DNA of 48,489 nucleotides. Origin: an uncultured bacterium. GTDB lineage: Bacteria > Patescibacteriota > Minisyncoccia > Phycocordibacterales > UBA9973. The notes under the pieces were generated by a model that was not told the origin of the DNA, ran no database searches, and saw only the letters and a list, made by a program, of their open reading frames with translations. Location of the stretch: the NCBI GenBank assembly GCA_903904195.1, contig CAIVBM010000033.1:1-48489 (forward strand), read 5' to 3'. Within the stretch, counting starts at the first letter, position 1. Each line of letters opens with the position of its first letter. This document shows positions 2,678 through 48,278 of the stretch, piece after piece. The position numbers and the translations under genes are program-made.

Positions 2678-3354
2678 TTTATTTTAGTACCTATAAATTC
2701 TTCACTATTTAGACATTTCTCTAAATTAACAATATTTTTACCATTTAGTATCACAACTTCAAGATGAAGTTCTTCTGCTTCTTTTGCTGCAATCGGATCA
2801 AATGGTACATTAGAACCCGGACCCCAATCTTTTGGAAGAAGATTCCTAAAATCTATCCAAGAAATTTCTTTTATACTTTTTGCATCTTTATATTTTTTGG
2901 GGTCTTTGTTATACACATAGTCAATATTAGAAAGGTTTATCAATCTTTTTGCTTTGATATTTTTTGCAATATGCACAGCAGCTAAATCACTACTATTTCC
3001 AGGTTTCCATCCAGCACCGAGCATTATAGGCTTATCAGTTTTCGGAATCATATCTGGATTCATTATTATTTTATCAAAAGCCAAGTCGCCAAAAGAAATC
3101 CGAACCAGCTCAGAATTAAGCCGTGTTGCAGCTATACCAAGCCAATCAAGATCATCCTTGGTAGGAGTAGTTATTTTTTCTATTGCCTCATTGTAACGTC
3201 TACAAATCTTTCCACCACCGGTAATAATTGAAAATTTCTTTCCTTGCTTTACTTGAGAAAGAATTAAGGTCTTAAAATCTTTTAGAAAATCAATATCTAT
3301 TTGATCAGGAACTATGAGCGATCCACCAAGCGAAATTACGATTGTTTCTTGCAT
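2674..3354 (-). CDS. pyrH: UMP kinase, archaeal-type (amino-acid-kinase fold)
   Basis: GGSLIVPDQIDIDFLK, TGGGKICRRY and DPIAAKEAE track the short archaeal PyrH pattern (GGSVLVP..DIDF, GGGK..R.Y, DPLAAK). ATGA overlap with map. Confidence 0.7.
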   Translation of the reverse strand: MQETIVISLGGSLIVPDQIDIDFLKDFKTLILSQVKQGKKFSIITGGGKICRRYNEAIEKITTPTKDDLDWLGIAATRLNSELVRISFGDLAFDKIIMNPDMIPKTDKPIMLGAGWKPGNSSDLAAVHIAKNIKAKRLINLSNIDYVYNKDPKKYKDAKSIKEISWIDFRNLLPKDWGPGSNVPFDPIAAKEAEELHLEVVILNGKNIVNLEKCLNSEEFIGTKIK

Positions 3355-3356
3355 AT

Positions 3357-3944
3357 TTAATATCCAAGTGCCTTGATAATATCTTGGTGCACTTTTTCTA
3401 CGGATTGCTCGCCATTTACAGTATAAATTTTGTAATTTTCTTTATTTTCAAAATAATTCATCGCCGGCACAACTTTATTTACATATTCATCAAATCTTTT
3501 CTCTATGCCTTCTTTTGTGTCATCAACACGACCACGAAGTAAATTGCGTTTCATCGCTTCTTCTTTCCCTAATTTGATATAAACAATTTTTATATCTTTT
3601 TGTTTATAAAACTCGAGCATTTCTTCCAAGTTTTCTGATTGAATCAACGTACGAGGATAACCATCGAAAATCAAATGTTTTTTGTCATTTAAATCATTAA
3701 TGAGAATATTTGCAACAAGCGCATCTGTTAGAAAATCCGGCTGAAGGTGCCCACGCATCATTGAGTCTTTTAATATATGCCCTGTATAATTACCCGTCTC
3801 GGCGAGTCTTCTATATTCATTACCTGGGTAAACATAGACACATCCTAGTCCGTTTTCCTTCTTCAAAAAATCCATAAGAAGTTTGACCTGAGTTCCCTTG
3901 CCAGAACCCACTATTCCAAAAAATACAAAAGTTTGAGGTTTCAT
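3357..3944 (-). CDS. adk: Adenylate kinase (short-LID form)
   Basis: P-loop GIVGSGKGTQ and the DGYPRT motif. Lies in the usual secY-adk-map neighbourhood. Confidence 0.85.
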   Translation of the reverse strand: MKPQTFVFFGIVGSGKGTQVKLLMDFLKKENGLGCVYVYPGNEYRRLAETGNYTGHILKDSMMRGHLQPDFLTDALVANILINDLNDKKHLIFDGYPRTLIQSENLEEMLEFYKQKDIKIVYIKLGKEEAMKRNLLRGRVDDTKEGIEKRFDEYVNKVVPAMNYFENKENYKIYTVNGEQSVEKVHQDIIKALGY

Positions 3945-3967
3945 AAGTTAAGAATACAAAATTCGGC

Positions 3968-3996
3968 TTGAATAATCAAGGATTTTGTAATAGAAT
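3968..3996 (+). promoter_or_regulatory. Putative promoter TTGAAT-17-TAGAAT for the divergent kinase paralog
   Basis: TTGAAT at 3968-3973 and TAGAAT at 3991-3996. The ATG at 4006 is only 9 nt downstream. Confidence 0.4.
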
Positions 3997-4005
3997 GGTT
4001 TTATC

Positions 4006-13026: not shown

Positions 13027-13054
13027 GATTTATGTCCTTTCAATAGTAAACAAA

Positions 13055-13071
13055 AAGCTCGAATCGAGCTT
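13055..13071 (-). promoter_or_regulatory. Palindromic hairpin plus U-tract in the rpsS leader (possible attenuator)
   Basis: AAGCTCGA-t-TCGAGCTT followed by TTTTGTTT. It lies between the rpsS promoter and the rpsS start. Confidence 0.35.
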
Positions 13072-13077
13072 GGTTTT

Positions 13078-13105
13078 ATATTAGCAAATAAGAGTAAAAT
13101 GTCAA
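13078..13105 (-). promoter_or_regulatory. Promoter TTGACA-16-(TGc)TAATAT restarting rpsS-rplV...
   Basis: Reverse complement of 13100-13105 is TTGACA and of 13078-13083 is TAATAT, preceded by ATTTGC. Confidence 0.55.
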
Positions 13106-13130
13106 ACCCAAACGCTTATAAAAAAGTTTG

Positions 13131-13158
13131 GGGTGGGCCGCGCGTACGCGACCCACCC
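13131..13158 (-). terminator. GC-rich hairpin terminator closing island A
   Basis: GGGTGGG-ccgcgcgtacgcga-CCCACCC, followed on the minus strand by CCAAACTTTTTTAT. Confidence 0.55.
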
Positions 13159-13350
13159 TCACTCTAAAGATACGTCTTCTCCTTGGCTTACTGCTCTTCT
13201 TGATCTCCTTGATTCAGAAGATGCTTGGCACATTCCCGTCGGCCAGCTCTCCTGTTTCTGCGAACACTCCTCCACTTCACTTTCTTCTCGTAGTCCACTG
13301 CTCTCCTTTTGTTTGAGGCATTTTATATGCCCGTAGTTTACTGCGACTCA

Positions 13351-13560
13351 CTACTTCACTGAACGTATCGTAAGACAGCTACCACTCTTGAGCCTGCTGA
13401 TTTTGGGATTGTAGTGACCCAAGAAATAGAGCAACTCTTTTAGAGTAAACGAGCCGTCACTCTGAACTACGAGCTCGTTTGTCCTACGAAATGTAGCTTT
13501 TTTTATATTGCTACATGCCATACCACTATCACCTCCCTTGGTAAAGGGTGAATGTGTCAC
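13351..13560 (-). CDS. Island A small ORF, 69 aa, unknown function
   Basis: ORF track. The GTG start overlaps the stop of the upstream 29-aa ORF (GTGA), suggesting translational coupling. GC-rich composition. Confidence 0.4.
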   Translation of the reverse strand: MTHSPFTKGGDSGMACSNIKKATFRRTNELVVQSDGSFTLKELLYFLGHYNPKISRLKSGSCLTIRSVK

Positions 13561-13646
13561 TTCTTGACGCCTTTTCTTCTCTCGGCGTCAGCAGCTTTTC
13601 GAGCATCTTCTTTCGCCCGAATTTCATGAGCTCTACGTCTTGTCAT
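13557..13646 (-). CDS. Island A small ORF, 29 aa, Arg/Lys-rich (MTRRRAHEIRAKEDARKAADAERRKGVKK)
   Basis: ATG at 13646 is preceded by AAAGGAG with a 6-nt spacer. Too short for the ORF track, so translated by hand. Confidence 0.35.
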   Translation of the reverse strand: MTRRRAHEIRAKEDARKAADAERRKGVKK

Positions 13647-13707
13647 CGAAGAACACTCCTTTCTTTGTTTCTGTGAACTACCTCATGCAGTCCACTTTTC
13701 TCCTATG

Positions 13708-13736
13708 TTTATACCACATAATAAAAAATAACACAA
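13708..13736 (-). promoter_or_regulatory. Putative island A promoter TTGTGT-17-(TGg)TATAAA
   Basis: Reverse complement of 13731-13736 is TTGTGT and of 13708-13713 is TATAAA, with TGg just upstream. Confidence 0.35.
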
Positions 13737-13765
13737 CAACAAGATAAAAGGTGTATAAACAAAAA

Positions 13766-13786
13766 TACGGAGGCAACGCCTCTGTA
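13766..13786 (-). terminator. Terminator-like hairpin directly after rplB
   Basis: Minus strand TACaGAGGC-gtt-GCCTCcGTA followed by TTTTTGTTT. Confidence 0.5.
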
Positions 13787-13797
13787 TTTTTTAATTT

Positions 13798-17902: not shown

Positions 17903-18052
17903 ATTATTATTTGGGTTAATAATTAAGACTCAACATACAGGAACCAGTTGCTGAGGCTTAGCTACTAACTTGCCTCGCCATTGGCGTGGGCAAAATTATT
18001 AATTAATAATTGATAAATCAAAACAAAAACTGCAAAAAACGCAGTTAAATAG

Positions 18053-18080
18053 ATACTAGCAAATTTAAAAACATTGTCAA
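18053..18080 (-). promoter_or_regulatory. Promoter TTGACA-16-(TGc)TAGTAT for tuf
   Basis: Reverse complement of 18075-18080 is TTGACA and of 18053-18058 is TAGTAT, preceded by ATTTGC. A ~140-nt leader follows. Confidence 0.55.
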
Positions 18081-18122
18081 CGGCTATTTTGTGTAAAAAA
18101 TTAACACCTAAAAATAGCAAAA

Positions 18123-18146
18123 CCCAGAAGGAATTTTCCGTCTGGG
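18123..18146 (-). terminator. Hairpin CCCAGA-N12-TCTGGG plus T-run (second terminator downstream of island B)
   Basis: Minus strand CCCAGAcggaaaattcctTCTGGG followed by TTTTGCTATTTTT. Confidence 0.45.
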
Positions 18147-18190
18147 CGTACATTTTGATTTGAAAACAAAAGAACTAAATTGGGGAACAC

Positions 18191-18216
18191 GGCACGGGGA
18201 GACTTCTCCCCGTGCC
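18191..18216 (-). terminator. GC-rich hairpin terminator closing island B
   Basis: GGCACGGGGAG-actt-CTCCCCGTGCC, an 11-bp perfect stem. Confidence 0.6.
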
Positions 18217-18267
18217 GACACGAATTCATCTCTGCGATACTTCGTGTATCTCCAATGCCTTTCGGCG

Positions 18268-18552
18268 TTACAAGGTGACAGTGATAGGAACCTTGGGCTC
18301 GGCCGCTAGAGCAGCTTGGCCGAGCTTCCAGATAGCGCTCGTGATATCCGCCCACCTTGCAGGATCATCTGGCCTCATCTCTTTCGGACCAGCGTAGGGA
18401 ACAAACTTCCTGTTACCCACGTCTGCAGGCGAATATATAGAACGCCTCTTGTCGAGTTCTTTGCACAGTGTATTGAAATTGGGATTTTCTTTCCCAATAT
18501 ACATAGTGAGAAGAATCAACAAGTACACATACTCTTCATGAAACTTCGTCAT
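18268..18552 (-). CDS. Island B ORF 2, 94 aa, unknown function
   Basis: ORF track. AAAGGAA sits 3 nt upstream of the ATG, 16 nt after the ORF 1 stop. GC-rich. Confidence 0.45.
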   Translation of the reverse strand: MTKFHEEYVYLLILLTMYIGKENPNFNTLCKELDKRRSIYSPADVGNRKFVPYAGPKEMRPDDPARWADITSAIWKLGQAALAAEPKVPITVTL

Positions 18553-18568
18553 GGGTTCCTTTGGTTGA

Positions 18569-18754
18569 CTAGAGGTGCCGCCTCGCGTGAGCTGTGGTGT
18601 TCACCCCTAGGGTCATGAACTCGAAGTCGGCCGGATCAATTTTCCCCCTGGCGATGATCACCGTCATGTTGGGACCGCCCTTCTGGGCCACAATTTTTTT
18701 GATCCCCGCACGTCGCCGTTGAAACTCTTTCTCTTCATCTGGTGTAAATGCCAT
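18569..18754 (-). CDS. Island B ORF 1, 61 aa, unknown function
   Basis: ORF track. AAAAAGGAGTGTT-ATG provides a strong SD. Confidence 0.45.
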   Translation of the reverse strand: MAFTPDEEKEFQRRRAGIKKIVAQKGGPNMTVIIARGKIDPADFEFMTLGVNTTAHARRHL

Positions 18755-18883
18755 AACACTCCTTTTTCCTTATACACTGCACTAATTCTCTTTTGAAGAA
18801 AGCAACAACTTCTCAACGAACACATCCCGTATTCGTCCAGCCTTCCTCAACGAAAATCTGCACTCGTTTTAATTAGTTTACGA

Positions 18884-18923
18884 TGCAGAATTTTGGAAAC
18901 TTTTTAATTTCCAAAATTCTGCA
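18884..18923. repeat. Perfect 16-bp inverted repeat TGCAGAATTTTGGAAA / TTTCCAAAATTCTGCA with an 8-nt spacer
   Basis: Read directly. A third half-site-like copy, AAAATCTGCAC, lies at 18852-18863. Confidence 0.6.
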
Positions 18924-19017
18924 CGCAAACTATTTCAAAAATTTATTTAAAAGAACAAAAAACACTAAAAAATAGCATAACATATTTTTTAGGAAAAGTA
19001 AAGCTCCAAAGCGTCCT

Positions 19018-31694: not shown

Positions 31695-32726
31695 TTAAAT
31701 CAAATTGACTTCAGGACTGAGTTTTAAGCCAAATTTATCTTTTACACTAGAAATAATTTCATTTGCTAAACTCAAAACTTCTTCTCCTGTCGCTCCTCCA
31801 TAATTTACTAAAACCAAAGCTTGTTTTTCATGCACACCAACATTGCCTTTCTTATAACCCTTCCAGCTTATACCATTTACAGGACCGCACTCTTCAATGA
31901 GCCACCCAGCAGGAATTTTCACCATTTCATCTTCATCAAAATGAGGCATTTCGGGATAAATTTTCTGTAATTTTTCAAATTCCGAAACTTTTACAAAAAC
32001 ATTTTTAAAAAAACTGCCTGCGTTATGAATAACTTTTGGATCCGGAAGCTTGCTCTTCCTTATCGCCCCTACTGCATCACTCACATCTTTAGAATTTTTA
32101 ATTTCTATCTTATTTTTTTCTAAATAATCTTGTAGAATTTTATAATTAATATTTTTATTTTCTTTTTTGCTTAATTTTAAAGTGACAGCTGTAATAAAAT
32201 ATTTTCCCTTAAATTCATTTTTAAAAACACTATCACGATAACCAAACTTACATTCTTCTTTTTGAAAAATCTTATTTTTACCCATATCAACATCAAAAGC
32301 TTCAACATTTTCTAGAACATCTTTGATTTCTACTCCATAAGCGCCTATGTTTTGCACCGGAGCAGCGCCTACGGTACCTGGAACAAGAGAGAGATTCTCA
32401 ATACCCCAAAGTCCTCGCTCCACAGAAAAATCCACGAGACTATACCACATCTCTCCACCCATGCATCTAATGAAAACATCATTTGAATTATCTTTTAAAA
32501 TTTCTATCCCTTTTAATTTATTTAAAATTACCAAACCATTAAAATCTTTTGTAAATAAAACATTACTTCCTCCACCAAGGAATAGTTTCTCATTATTTTT
32601 GAATTCTTTTATATTAAAAAGCTCTTTTAAATCAGCTTCAGTATTAATTTCAACAAAAAACTTCACCTGAACCGAAATGCCAAAGGTATTTAACTTAGAT
32701 AAATTGTAATTTTTTTGTATTTTCAT
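31695..32726 (-). CDS. murB: UDP-N-acetylenolpyruvoylglucosamine reductase MurB
   Basis: FAD-binding FLGGGSNVLF, GTVGAAPVQNIGAYG and the C-terminal GSFFKN ... AGWLIE motifs. Confidence 0.9.
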   Translation of the reverse strand: MKIQKNYNLSKLNTFGISVQVKFFVEINTEADLKELFNIKEFKNNEKLFLGGGSNVLFTKDFNGLVILNKLKGIEILKDNSNDVFIRCMGGEMWYSLVDFSVERGLWGIENLSLVPGTVGAAPVQNIGAYGVEIKDVLENVEAFDVDMGKNKIFQKEECKFGYRDSVFKNEFKGKYFITAVTLKLSKKENKNINYKILQDYLEKNKIEIKNSKDVSDAVGAIRKSKLPDPKVIHNAGSFFKNVFVKVSEFEKLQKIYPEMPHFDEDEMVKIPAGWLIEECGPVNGISWKGYKKGNVGVHEKQALVLVNYGGATGEEVLSLANEIISSVKDKFGLKLSPEVNLI

Positions 32727-32763
32727 TCGCTTATTTAGTATAGCAAAAGTTTGGCTAGAAATA

Positions 32764-32783
32764 GAGAACCGCCGGTGGTTCTC
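32764..32783 (-). terminator. GC hairpin GAGAACC-N6-GGTTCTC closing island C
   Basis: Read directly. It lies between the last island ORF and the murB -10 box. Confidence 0.45.
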
Positions 32784-32821
32784 CCACCAGGCGGTGTACT
32801 GTCAATGTTGTTAAGGGCTGT

Positions 32822-32971
32822 CTATTCTTCGCCCCCTTTCCTTTTGAAGAACTCTTTCACGCGCCGAATTCCTTCGGCAACTTCCGCCTCCAAGGGATCA
32901 AGGGGACCATTATCCCCGCCATCATATCCCAAGACTAGGCTGAGCTTTCTGGCCTCGTTGGTACTATTCAT
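32822..32971 (-). CDS. Island C ORF 2, 49 aa (MNSTNEARKLSLVLGYDGGDNGPLDPLEAEVAEGIRRVKEFFKRKGGEE)
   Basis: ATG at 32971 preceded by AAAAGGAAACCC. It is the 3' part of the 112-aa ORF in the track. Confidence 0.4.
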   Translation of the reverse strand: MNSTNEARKLSLVLGYDGGDNGPLDPLEAEVAEGIRRVKEFFKRKGGEE

Positions 32972-32993
32972 GGGTTTCCTTTTGCTGAACGGA

Positions 32994-33173
32994 CTACAAA
33001 GAGCGCACAAGATCGGGGTCAGAAGCAGGGGACTTAGATCCACCCTCATTTCCCTCTCTTGAACTCTCTGCGACTGCAGGCGACGGTTGTTGTTGACCAC
33101 CAGAACTCGCTGCTTCTTCGGCGGCAACTTCCATTGCATCTTTCCAGTCGTGATGTTCACGTACCAGATTCAT
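32994..33173 (-). CDS. Island C ORF 1, 59 aa, acidic and low complexity (MNLVREHHDWKDAMEVAAEEAASSGGQQQ...)
   Basis: Hand-translated, one residue below the ORF-track cutoff. ATG at 33173 with AAGGAG 11 nt upstream. Confidence 0.4.
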   Translation of the reverse strand: MNLVREHHDWKDAMEVAAEEAASSGGQQQPSPAVAESSREGNEGGSKSPASDPDLVRSL

Positions 33174-33214
33174 GTTTGTTTTTTCTCCTTGTTTGTGCTC
33201 GGAACTCTGTACGC

Positions 33215-33243
33215 ATTATACCCCCAGTGGTGGCTCCTGTCAA
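33215..33243 (-). promoter_or_regulatory. Perfect consensus promoter TTGACA-17-TATAAT driving island C
   Basis: Reverse complement of 33238-33243 is TTGACA, which overlaps the tsaC stop codon. Reverse complement of 33215-33220 is TATAAT. The spacer is exactly 17 nt. Confidence 0.65.
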
Positions 33244-33815
33244 TCTCTTAAAACTTCAACTGAACCGTCTTTTTTTAGCCTAATTACTTTAGAAGCTTTG
33301 CCTTTTATCTCTCCCCCATCAACATATAAATCAACAGAATCTCCAAAATACTTTTTCGCTTCAATAATATTTAGCGCCGGAGGCAAACCTTCAAGGTTTG
33401 CCGACGGCGCTACGAGCGGACCTGTTTCTTTCAATAAATCCTGTAAACCTCCTTGCGCAGGCAAACGAAAAGCTAGCGAATTTGTATCACGATGTAAATA
33501 TCTAAATTTCTCTTCATTACAATCTAAAATAATACTTACCGGTTCTGTATTTATAGACCAATATTTTTCTAATACTAATTTTTGTTCTTTTGAAATATTT
33601 ATTGAAAATTTTCCTAAATCTTTAATGTCAGAAATTAAAATAATACATGGCTTGCTCGGCGCACGCTTTCGTATTTCATAAATCCTGTTTACTGTTTTCT
33701 CATTTTCAGCTTTTCCAACAATTCCATACAAAGTATCTGTGGGCATGACAACCACACCACCCTCTTTAAGTGTTTTATGTAGATTTTTATCATTCCATAC
33801 ATCATTTTTTTTCAT
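33240..33815 (-). CDS. tsaC: L-threonylcarbamoyladenylate synthase, TsaC/YrdC family
   Basis: VVVMPTDTLYGIVGKA, RKRAPSKPCIILI, LAFRLP and PSAN motifs of the YrdC domain. Confidence 0.85.
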   Translation of the reverse strand: MKKNDVWNDKNLHKTLKEGGVVVMPTDTLYGIVGKAENEKTVNRIYEIRKRAPSKPCIILISDIKDLGKFSINISKEQKLVLEKYWSINTEPVSIILDCNEEKFRYLHRDTNSLAFRLPAQGGLQDLLKETGPLVAPSANLEGLPPALNIIEAKKYFGDSVDLYVDGGEIKGKASKVIRLKKDGSVEVLRD

Positions 33816-47309: not shown

Positions 47310-47339
47310 GAGGGCGTTCGCACATGCGCGAACGCCCTC
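47310..47339 (-). terminator. GC hairpin GAGGGCGTTCGC-acatgc-GCGAACGCCCTC (12-bp perfect stem)
   Basis: Read directly. It lies between the stop of 47358-48065 and the tatD -10 box. Confidence 0.6.
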
Positions 47340-47357
47340 CCCCTACGATCGACACAT

Positions 47358-48065
47358 TCAACAATCAAACCGCTCATCCCCCCACCCTGATTCCGGTTCT
47401 TCAATGGCCATTTCGTCTGACATATCTCTGGCAATCTCGAAATGCTCCTTGTCGTCACCCCAAAAGGCAAGGCTGAGCTCGATTGACTGCTTCAGAGTAT
47501 CATCATACATGGAATGCCAAGCCCTGTAATTCCTGAGTGCACACTCTAGCTCATTCACGTTCCTTGTCCTTTGAAGGCGAACGGTGTCCAGATGGTCTTC
47601 GGAGATCATGACCTTTTTAGCCAGTATAGCTAGCCCGTTACGAACCTTGTCATGGGCTTGCGAAAGATCTAGCTTATTCTGATTGCCCTTAACTAATGCC
47701 CTATAGAAGAAGCCGGACCCGAACTGCTTGGCCACAAGATCAAGAGACGCACGTATTTTCACACACTTGTCGCTCACGTAAGCAGCGATGACAAACCAAC
47801 CCCACAACACGCAAATAAATGCGATTAGTATCACGAATCTCTTGTCGCCGATGCCGGCGAAACCCGCAATGCCAAGAAAGCTGGACACCAGAAACAGAAC
47901 CATGCATACGACGAACATCACACGCATGGCTCTCTCAATCTTCCGATACAGCTTCCACTTGTCGCACTGACATTTCAAAGGACCATACTTCCCATACAAG
48001 ATAAGTAAGACTTCATCTGGAAGACAGTTCACCAACCTCATCAGGAATTCTATCGTTTCGTTCAT
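47358..48065 (-). CDS. Island D 2-TM membrane protein with a ~130-aa acidic helical C-terminal domain, unknown function
   Basis: ORF track, trimmed to the first ATG (MNETIEF...). TM segments are VMFVVCMVLFLVSSFLGIAGFAGI and FVILIAFICVLWGWFVIAAYV. GC-rich. Confidence 0.55.
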   Translation of the reverse strand: MNETIEFLMRLVNCLPDEVLLILYGKYGPLKCQCDKWKLYRKIERAMRVMFVVCMVLFLVSSFLGIAGFAGIGDKRFVILIAFICVLWGWFVIAAYVSDKCVKIRASLDLVAKQFGSGFFYRALVKGNQNKLDLSQAHDKVRNGLAILAKKVMISEDHLDTVRLQRTRNVNELECALRNYRAWHSMYDDTLKQSIELSLAFWGDDKEHFEIARDMSDEMAIEEPESGWGDERFDC

Positions 48066-48214
48066 TTTGTCAACTATCCTTTCGAGGAATGCATGGCGGT
48101 TTCTCCGCACCTCTTTGAGACTTCTACCCAAAGAGAATCTTCATGCCTCTCCGTCGCAACTATACACCCAAAAATATTTTTTGTTAAATAAAATAAATCC
48201 ACATAAAACGAAAA

Positions 48215-48244
48215 GGAGTGGTCCGCACAAGCGCGAACCACTCC
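48215..48244 (-). terminator. GC hairpin GGAGTGGTCCGC-acaagc-GCGAACCACTCC plus T-tract
   Basis: One mismatch in a 12-bp stem. The loop and lower stem are related to the hairpin at 47310-47339. Followed on the minus strand by CTTTTCGTTTTAT. Confidence 0.6.
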
Positions 48245-48278
48245 CAAAGATTCTGATCTCTTTTTTCACCATTCCCGG

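Follow-up and report, generated by a model that had tools for sequence, protein, structure and literature searches.

Phage morons are autonomous units of promoter, gene and terminator that lie between conserved genes of lambdoid phages. ORFans are taxonomically restricted open reading frames (ORFs) of atypical base composition, usually richer in A+T, that are often attributed to phages or unsampled donors. Genomes of Candidatus Saccharibacteria, and of the candidate phyla radiation (CPR) in general, are usually seen as streamlined and shaped by gene loss. Analysis of the entire 48,489 nucleotides (nt) of contig CAIVBM010000033.1 (assembly GCA_903904195.1), referred to here as the window, showed at least four recently acquired cassettes of foreign composition wedged between core genes, each with putative expression signals of its own. 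The cassette studied here, island C, is a G+C-rich segment on the minus strand within a 513-nt spacer between tsaC and murB. Island C is real, recently acquired foreign DNA and not a feature of the core genome, and it is likely to be a horizontally acquired, self-contained transcription unit, similar to a moron, lodged in an ancestrally contiguous tsaC-murB pair of a low-G+C Candidatus Saccharibacteria genome.

Relatives of the locus were retrieved using MurB as the anchor, and consisted of Candidatus Saccharibacteria metagenome-assembled genomes and metagenome contigs with MurB proteins that are 59-73% identical to that of the window. In three of these relatives the spacer is empty: the TAA stop codon of tsaC is separated by 1 nt from the ATG of murB in L009 and L018, and the two genes overlap (ATGA) in L016, giving a tsaC-murB distance of -4 to +1 nt versus 513 nt in the window. 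Since the genes abut or overlap in these relatives, the ancestral arrangement was a tightly coupled pair, into which the 513 nt of the window's spacer were inserted in one lineage. A comparison of this junction had been proposed by a first-pass annotation, made from the sequence alone, which described the segment and missed that it is a lineage-specific insertion of foreign composition.

Other relatives carry different cargo at this site. A 423-amino acid (aa) membrane transporter is encoded between tsaC and murB in L012, and a similar transporter gene lies directly 5′ of murB in L010, L017 and L019, with no tsaC match found upstream of the transporter in these last three loci. The closest relative, L015 (MurB 73% and TsaC 69% identical), has a 688-nt insert (3313-4000) between tsaC and murB that has no sequence in common with island C and a G+C content of 0.41 versus about 0.33. 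The L015 insert encodes a 135-aa orphan unrelated to C1 and C2, the two ORFs of island C, and this ORF has the strongest Shine-Dalgarno (SD) sequence of its locus (AAAGGAGG, -11.8 kcal/mol) and the highest G+C content at third codon positions (GC3). The stop codon of tsaC in L015 again lies within a TTGACA, followed 17 nt later by TACAAT, and a TATACT box precedes murB. The boundaries of the insertion, a promoter at the tsaC stop and a -10 box before murB, are thus common to the window and L015, and the cargo differs.

The junctions of island C were reproduced in public data. C1 has been called as a gene on 16 public contigs, all in the context tsaC-C1-murB, which derive from different samples and assemblers (ENA "BUCK21" scaffolds, MEGAHIT k141 contigs and Logan assemblies). 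Eight contigs that were fetched are 100% identical across the island C junction, and one further contig differs by one single nucleotide polymorphism (SNP) that changes residue 2 of C1 from N to T (a 98% identical variant). Read support for the junction had been named as a point on which the first-pass annotation could fail; the junction is present in independent assemblies, and an assembly chimera is excluded by its recurrence. No island-free variant was found among the contigs encoding an identical MurB, all of which carry island C.

The features of island C are as follows, with SD duplex energies computed against a generic anti-SD sequence.

33243-33238, minus strand: -35 hexamer TTGACA, overlapping the tsaC stop codon TGA (33242-33240).
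33220-33215, minus strand: -10 hexamer TATAAT, after a 17-nt spacer of 76% G+C.
33190-33185, minus strand: putative SD sequence of C1, AAGGAG, 11 nt 5′ of the C1 ATG (anti-SD duplex -8.3 kcal/mol).
33173-32994, minus strand: ORF C1, 59 aa, acidic, low-complexity, probably disordered, orphan.
33160-32822, minus strand: alternative 112-aa frame with a GTG start, overlapping C1 in the +1 phase and containing C2 as its C-terminal part.
32983-32975, minus strand: SD-like sequence of C2, AAAAGGAAA, with the AAGGA core 5 nt 5′ of the C2 ATG (-5.8 kcal/mol).
32971-32822, minus strand: ORF C2, 49 aa, predicted helix-loop-helix hairpin, orphan.
32795-32757, minus strand: terminator-like element, an 11-bp G+C-rich stem interrupted by one bulge (32795-32768), followed by the U-rich tail UCUCUAUUUCU (32767-32757).
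32745-32737, minus strand: extended -10 box of murB, TGcTATACT, ending 10 nt before the murB ATG (32726).

The pair TTGACA-17-TATAAT scored 12/12 in a promoter scan and is the sole exact match within the window, against an expectation of 0.02 per window from shuffled sequence and 0.032 from a base-composition estimate. The first-pass annotation was right that a consensus promoter overlaps the tsaC stop; the "very strong constitutive expression" that it ascribed to the two tiny proteins is an inference from consensus matches. Transcription is predicted to start at about 33208. The strong promoters that the host has for tuf and rpsS belong to the TTGACA/TAnnAT type, and recognition of the island C promoter by the host polymerase is therefore expected. 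The G+C content, measured in 200-nt windows, climbs directly after TTGACA to 50-57%, compared with about 25-35% in the flanks, and the climb stops at the hairpin, in agreement with the G+C-rich segment described earlier. The 59-aa acidic, low-complexity ORF with AAGGAG upstream and the 49-aa ORF behind an SD-like motif were likewise found where they had been placed.

The closing hairpin was only partly as described. The inverted repeat GAGAACC-N6-GGTTCTC that the first-pass annotation had given as the end of the segment exists, but the stable fold is a different and longer pairing at 32795-32768, (A)CCGCC-u-GGUGG / loop GAGAA / CCACC-GGCGG(U), with a folding free energy of -21.2 kcal/mol (z = -3.1; 1 of 200 shuffles folds as well). 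A simple pattern scan overlooked this candidate terminator because of its bulge and interrupted T run. The -10 box reported 10 nt before the murB ATG is present, and shares the TGCTAnnAT form with the native tuf and rpsS promoters. It is the sole promoter-like element for murB and implies an mRNA leader of only ~3-4 nt, a length that fits a host with SD-independent initiation. Pfam identified the flanking genes as tsaC (Sua5_yciO_yrdC) and murB (FAD_binding_4 and MurB_C), and the neighbourhood consists of tsaC, murB, rplS, nusG, rplK and similar genes.

A G+C-rich intergenic block behind a strong promoter in an A+T-rich genome is usually a structured RNA, and a non-coding RNA gene would account for a roughly 450-nt G+C-rich unit with promoter and terminator in such a genome, and for the lack of protein homologues. 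This explanation is nevertheless very improbable. At the gathering threshold, Rfam 15 returned five tRNAs in the whole window and no family in island C, where the best match had 20 bits versus a gathering score of 60 and the matches at E <= 10 were noise; families including RNase P, transfer-messenger RNA (tmRNA), 6S and signal recognition particle RNA gave no match near the gathering score in the island, and ARAGORN found no tmRNA. The folding energy of the island is like that of its shuffles (minus strand, z = -1.57; plus strand, z = -0.46), and the unit is filled by two ORFs with start codons and SD-like motifs. Island C is also absent from relatives, and so is not a conserved housekeeping RNA.

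Island C looks foreign by three criteria, namely its composition, its SD signals and its G+C-rich terminator. The GC3 of C2 is 0.56 versus about 0.27 in native genes, for which 0.2-0.35 is typical. Every island ORF is preceded by an SD-like motif, whereas GGAG, GAGG or AGGA occurs within 22 nt upstream of only 8 of 52 native genes and is missing there from tuf, fusA and the ribosomal-protein genes. The anti-SD duplex energy averages -8.1 kcal/mol for 8 island ORFs versus -0.8 kcal/mol for native starts, just three of which (3/52) reach -6 kcal/mol (Mann-Whitney p = 1.1e-5). Native gene starts (n = 52) are mostly SD-less with A/T-rich upstream regions, and those of L015-L017 are similar. The lineage appears to rely on SD-independent initiation, and in such a host the SD-led island ORFs may or may not be translated well.

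At least three further cassettes of the same layout occur in the window. The ORFs of islands A, B and D are SD-led and 29-235 aa long, and each island ends in a G+C-rich hairpin (-24 to -29 kcal/mol, z = -4.3 to -5.5). Their features are the following.

13027-13797, minus strand: 771-nt rplB|rpsS spacer inside the S10 operon, with island A at ~13130-13700.
13557-13646, 13351-13521 and 13188-13298, minus strand: SD-led micro-ORFs of island A, of 29, 56 and 36 aa.
13131-13158, minus strand: G+C-rich putative terminator hairpin of island A (-29.2 kcal/mol).
17903-19017, minus strand: 1.1-kb fusA|tuf spacer, with island B at ~18180-18880, a block of ~50% G+C.
18569-18754 and 18268-18552, minus strand: SD-led orphan ORFs of island B, of 61 and 94 aa.
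~18189-18216, minus strand: putative terminator hairpin of island B (-28.7 kcal/mol).
~47300 to past 48489, minus strand: island D, a G+C-rich block upstream of tatD that runs off the end of the window and consists of two units.
47358-48065, minus strand: ORF D235 of island D, a 235-aa orphan (GC3 0.58) whose hydrophobic stretches may span a membrane.
47310-47339 and 48214-48245, minus strand: two putative terminator hairpins of island D.
48187-48159, minus strand: promoter-like site of island D.

No similarity was found by blastn and tblastx among islands A-D or between them and the loci of relatives, apart from a 16/18 core common to both terminators of island D. A search with D235, the longest island protein, found only itself. 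Island B was reproduced in independent assemblies, in which contigs often break at its edges (18116, 18031 and 18879); all public contigs of island D stop within ~520 nt upstream of the D235 ORF. An A+T-rich 22/28 repeat that flanks island B probably reflects the common TGCTAnnnT promoter motif of this genome.

Cargo exchange was seen between near-identical strains at the island A site. The contig L038, found among contigs encoding an identical EF-Tu, represents a 99.9%-identical strain whose sequence matches the window at 100% identity over about 6.9 kb, from 20902 to 13958, island B included. Directly after this stretch come nine synonymous SNPs clustered in codons 227-241 of rplB, and then, where the window has island A, a terminator and an A+T-rich ORF with a length of at least 158 aa (L038 13266-14668 versus window 13958-13027). 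The switch within rplB is a sharp homologous-recombination breakpoint, accompanied by a swap of cargo at rplB|rpsS. Around island B in co-occurring strains, 56 nt of unrelated DNA with 68% G+C lie upstream of the island (window 18879) in L031 and L032 (1-56), an unrelated 460-nt block with a minus-strand ORF lies upstream of the tuf leader (window 18029) in L034 (1-460), and several contigs break at 18116 or 18031 near tuf. At the tsaC|murB site, the cargo is C1 and C2 in the window, the 135-aa orphan in L015, a transporter in L012, L010, L017 and L019, and nothing in L009, L016 and L018. These junctions act as recombination hotspots with interchangeable cargo.

The coding frames of island C were assessed with a codon model trained on the other islands, together with codon-position G+C content, gene calls and structure prediction. 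The frame of C2 is supported as the likely coding frame: its G+C content by codon position is 0.60/0.38/0.56, its codon-model score is +6.2 bits, and it has been called as a gene on contig L014. AlphaFold2 predicted a helix-loop-helix hairpin for C2 (helices 3-14 and 26-45) with a predicted local distance difference test score (pLDDT) of 70, and Foldseek found no match to this model (best E 3.4). Structure prediction for the 49-aa product, a check proposed at the outset, thus gave a fold and no structural relative.

For the upstream half, the codon model, G+C periodicity and AlphaFold2 gave conflicting signals. C1 has a codon-position G+C of 0.68/0.50/0.38 and a first-position G of 0.48. A single longer protein in the 112-aa frame, starting at GTG 33160 or ATG 33139, would make C1 a spurious overlapping frame, and the first-pass annotation had named conservation of this frame as a finding that would count against the two small ORFs; no homologues were found in which the frames could be compared. 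About 115 codons of this frame are free of stops, its G+C content by codon position (0.51/0.40/0.68, then 0.60/0.38/0.56) holds one phase throughout and resembles that of other island genes, and the codon model prefers it (+5.2 bits) over C1 (-9.4 bits). Its GTG, however, is not preceded by an SD (-0.9 kcal/mol), no public assembly has it as a called gene while C1 was called on 16 contigs, and its N-terminal 63 residues are rich in R, L, P and S, with a first-position G of 0.16 and predicted disorder (pLDDT 44-61). A search with the C-terminal 49 aa of the frame also gave no longer homologue. C1 is favoured because of its ATG, its SD, its first-position G, the gene callers and the structure prediction, and one long protein is an improbable explanation. 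Two ORFs are favoured over the single long frame, which takes a small share of the probability, and a non-coding upstream half takes the remainder.

Searches for relatives of the island proteins covered several large collections. C1 has no relative other than its one-SNP variant among 5.8 billion proteins, and C2 matched only itself among 1.84 billion cluster representatives in an exhaustive HMMER search, in which five other matches were weak, spanned ~20-30 residues and lay inside long, mostly repetitive proteins. Neither C1 nor C2 had a match in Pfam, NCBIfam or PADLOC, or in a sequence search of the PDB, and PHROGs gave only noise at E > 0.1. A toxin-antitoxin or anti-phage defence module was considered and rejected, as there was no profile match to known families and both peptides lack the hydrophobicity of type I toxins. 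No relatives were found in IMG/VR with C1, C2, B1 and B2 of island B, D235 or the L015 ORF, or in JGI metagenomes with C2, and blastn against the GenBank phage collection and PLSDB plasmids gave no DNA match.

These results bear on whether island C could be inert foreign DNA, acquired by natural transformation or illegitimate recombination, in which the ORFs are fortuitous or are decaying remnants of the donor and only the promoter and terminator matter, by rewiring murB expression. Such an origin would fit the lack of homologues in the searches made, the near-identical copies and lack of evidence for selection, the low complexity of C1, and the conflict of frame signals between C1 and the 112-aa frame. 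It would also fit the SD-like strings that composition alone places at 10-23% of positions, in a host whose native translation is SD-independent. Every tested ORF in the four islands and the L015 insert, however, has an ATG or GTG start and an SD-like motif at a plausible distance, and a strong terminator follows the unit, which is more order than expected of random junk. In addition, C2, B1, B2 and D235 have the codon-position G+C typical of coding sequence, and B1, B2 and D235 have positive leave-one-out codon scores. Inert DNA is unlikely, and a self-contained unit that carries small genes is preferred.

Island C and the first 52 nt of murB are enclosed by a direct repeat that matches at 17 of 18 nt.

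33267-33250, minus strand: left copy, CGGTTCAGTTGAAGTTTT, in the 3′ end of tsaC, 10 nt before the stop codon.
32674-32657, minus strand: right copy, CGGTTCAGGTGAAGTTTT, at murB nt 53-70, in another reading frame than the left copy.

None of 2000 Markov simulations reached the 17/18 score, neither the rest of the window nor the relatives contain the repeat, and MurB departs from its relatives at exactly the codons of the repeat. Since the tsaC|murB junction is restored in neither orientation and the repeat lies 53 nt inside murB, it is not a simple att site or target-site duplication; it may be the scar of illegitimate or short-patch recombination. The repeat, the cassette-like layout with a closing hairpin and the differing cargo at tsaC|murB between genomes could suggest a known mobile element, such as an integron cassette or an element of the miniature inverted-repeat transposable element or insertion sequence type, if not a chimeric assembly. 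In a regular-expression scan of both strands, however, no attC core sites (RYYYAAC / GTTRRRY) were found in 32700-33300; island C has its own putative promoter, with no integrase or transposase among the called neighbours, and none of the genes annotated by Pfam in the 10 kb to each side has an integrase domain. Terminal inverted repeats are absent, a 9/11 repeat at the boundaries is no better than chance (112 of 1000 shuffles reach it), the direct repeat sits inside murB, and the identical junctions in independent assemblies rule out chimerism. A known mobile element or a chimera is extremely improbable.

Under the preferred reading of island C as an acquired transcription unit, the consensus sigma-70 promoter, with its -35 hexamer over the tsaC stop, would give rise to a ~450-nt transcript from near 33208 that carries two SD-led orphans, C1, an acidic and disordered protein of 59 aa, and C2, a helical hairpin of 49 aa, and ends at the G+C-rich intrinsic terminator at 32795-32757. 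This terminator would insulate murB, so that murB would be re-promoted from the extended -10 box 10 nt upstream of its ATG and its mRNA would be nearly leaderless. The tsaC|murB junction is one of several core-gene junctions of this lineage that hold interchangeable accessory cargo, which would be exchanged by homologous recombination in the flanking conserved genes. An autonomous and probably strongly transcribed unit is the best reading of the anatomy. What the first-pass annotation observed is confirmed, and its interpretation is partly supported. The analysis shows the insertion, its foreign composition and signals, the orphan ORFs and the hotspot behaviour; transcription, termination, translation and any function of the peptides are inferred. 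With low confidence, the peptides can be suggested to serve an accessory function specific to the strain, such as one in conflicts with phages, with rival strains or with the host bacterium.

Several points weigh against this interpretation. The copies of island C are near-identical, with one SNP, and hence provide no evidence of purifying selection on either ORF, and the island-trained codon model prefers the 112-aa frame over C1. SD-like strings are frequent in the purine-rich island, with 10-23% of positions scoring comparably. Promoter and terminator activity is judged from sequence consensus, and horizontal origin from composition and synteny, nothing similar having been found in IMG/VR, JGI metagenomes, the GenBank phage collection or PLSDB plasmids. 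The 17/18-nt direct repeat is not explained by a moron-like cassette. Finally, the context is core chromosomal with no phage genes nearby, and the island is thus not a strict moron.

A broader and rather doubtful proposal is that islands A-D and the L015 insert represent an undescribed class of miniature promoter-ORF-terminator cassettes circulating among Saccharibacteria. Such cassettes would derive from an unsampled, SD-using donor pool of higher G+C content (host bacteria, plasmids or phages), enter by natural transformation, lodge at junctions of essential, highly expressed genes and be swapped by homologous recombination, supplying hypervariable small proteins for episymbiont-host interaction or anti-phage defence, with the 17/18-nt repeat as an insertion scar. 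Should the islands be expressed, this obligate episymbiont would have a compact accessory layer of small orphan proteins that is hypervariable, and loci of this kind would be expected to mediate host range or phage resistance. If they are not, island C would be an ordinary scar of horizontal gene transfer, and a warning that G+C-rich intergenic blocks in CPR genomes need not be RNA genes. SD-led foreign genes beside SD-less native genes also offer a natural test of how such ribosomes treat imported genes.

Island C shares features with four described kinds of element. Like integron cassettes, it belongs to a set of short interchangeable units behind a fixed promoter (TTGACA over the tsaC stop, in the window and L015) and ends in a hairpin. 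Unlike them, it has no attC cores or integrase, the cassette itself supplies the -10 box, and the short, perfectly paired stem of its hairpin is followed by a U-rich tail, which marks a probable terminator. As in ORFans, the island ORFs are short, of atypical composition, confined to one lineage and without homologues among billions of proteins; these orphans differ in being G+C-richer than the host and in using an SD that host genes largely lack.

The resemblance to genomic islets at hotspots lies in the variation of cargo between genomes at one core-gene junction (in the window, in L015, and in L012/L010, which have a transporter) and in the rplB|rpsS breakpoint within a core gene that marks a cargo swap between 99.9%-identical strains. 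The islands differ in their unusually small cargo (0.5-1 kb, ORFs of 29-235 aa), in the full set of putative expression signals in each unit, and in hotspots that include the most conserved operons, at fusA|tuf and rplB|rpsS. An identifiable donor or homologous copies elsewhere, by which islets are recognised, were not found in the collections searched.

The comparison with phage morons is the closest. Island C lies between genes that are adjacent in relatives, has a putative sigma-70-type promoter and intrinsic terminator of its own, is distinct in composition from its flanks, and carries small genes to which no accessory function is assigned. It differs in its location in a core chromosome, with sister cassettes inside the str/S10 ribosomal operons, and in having no phage genes nearby, no significant PHROG match, no viral-contig relative and no phage DNA match. 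Four of the five features listed for morons were found at the sequence level, and island C is not classed as a moron since it lies outside a phage. It is best described as a moron-like cassette of orphan genes that lies in the core part of a CPR chromosome.

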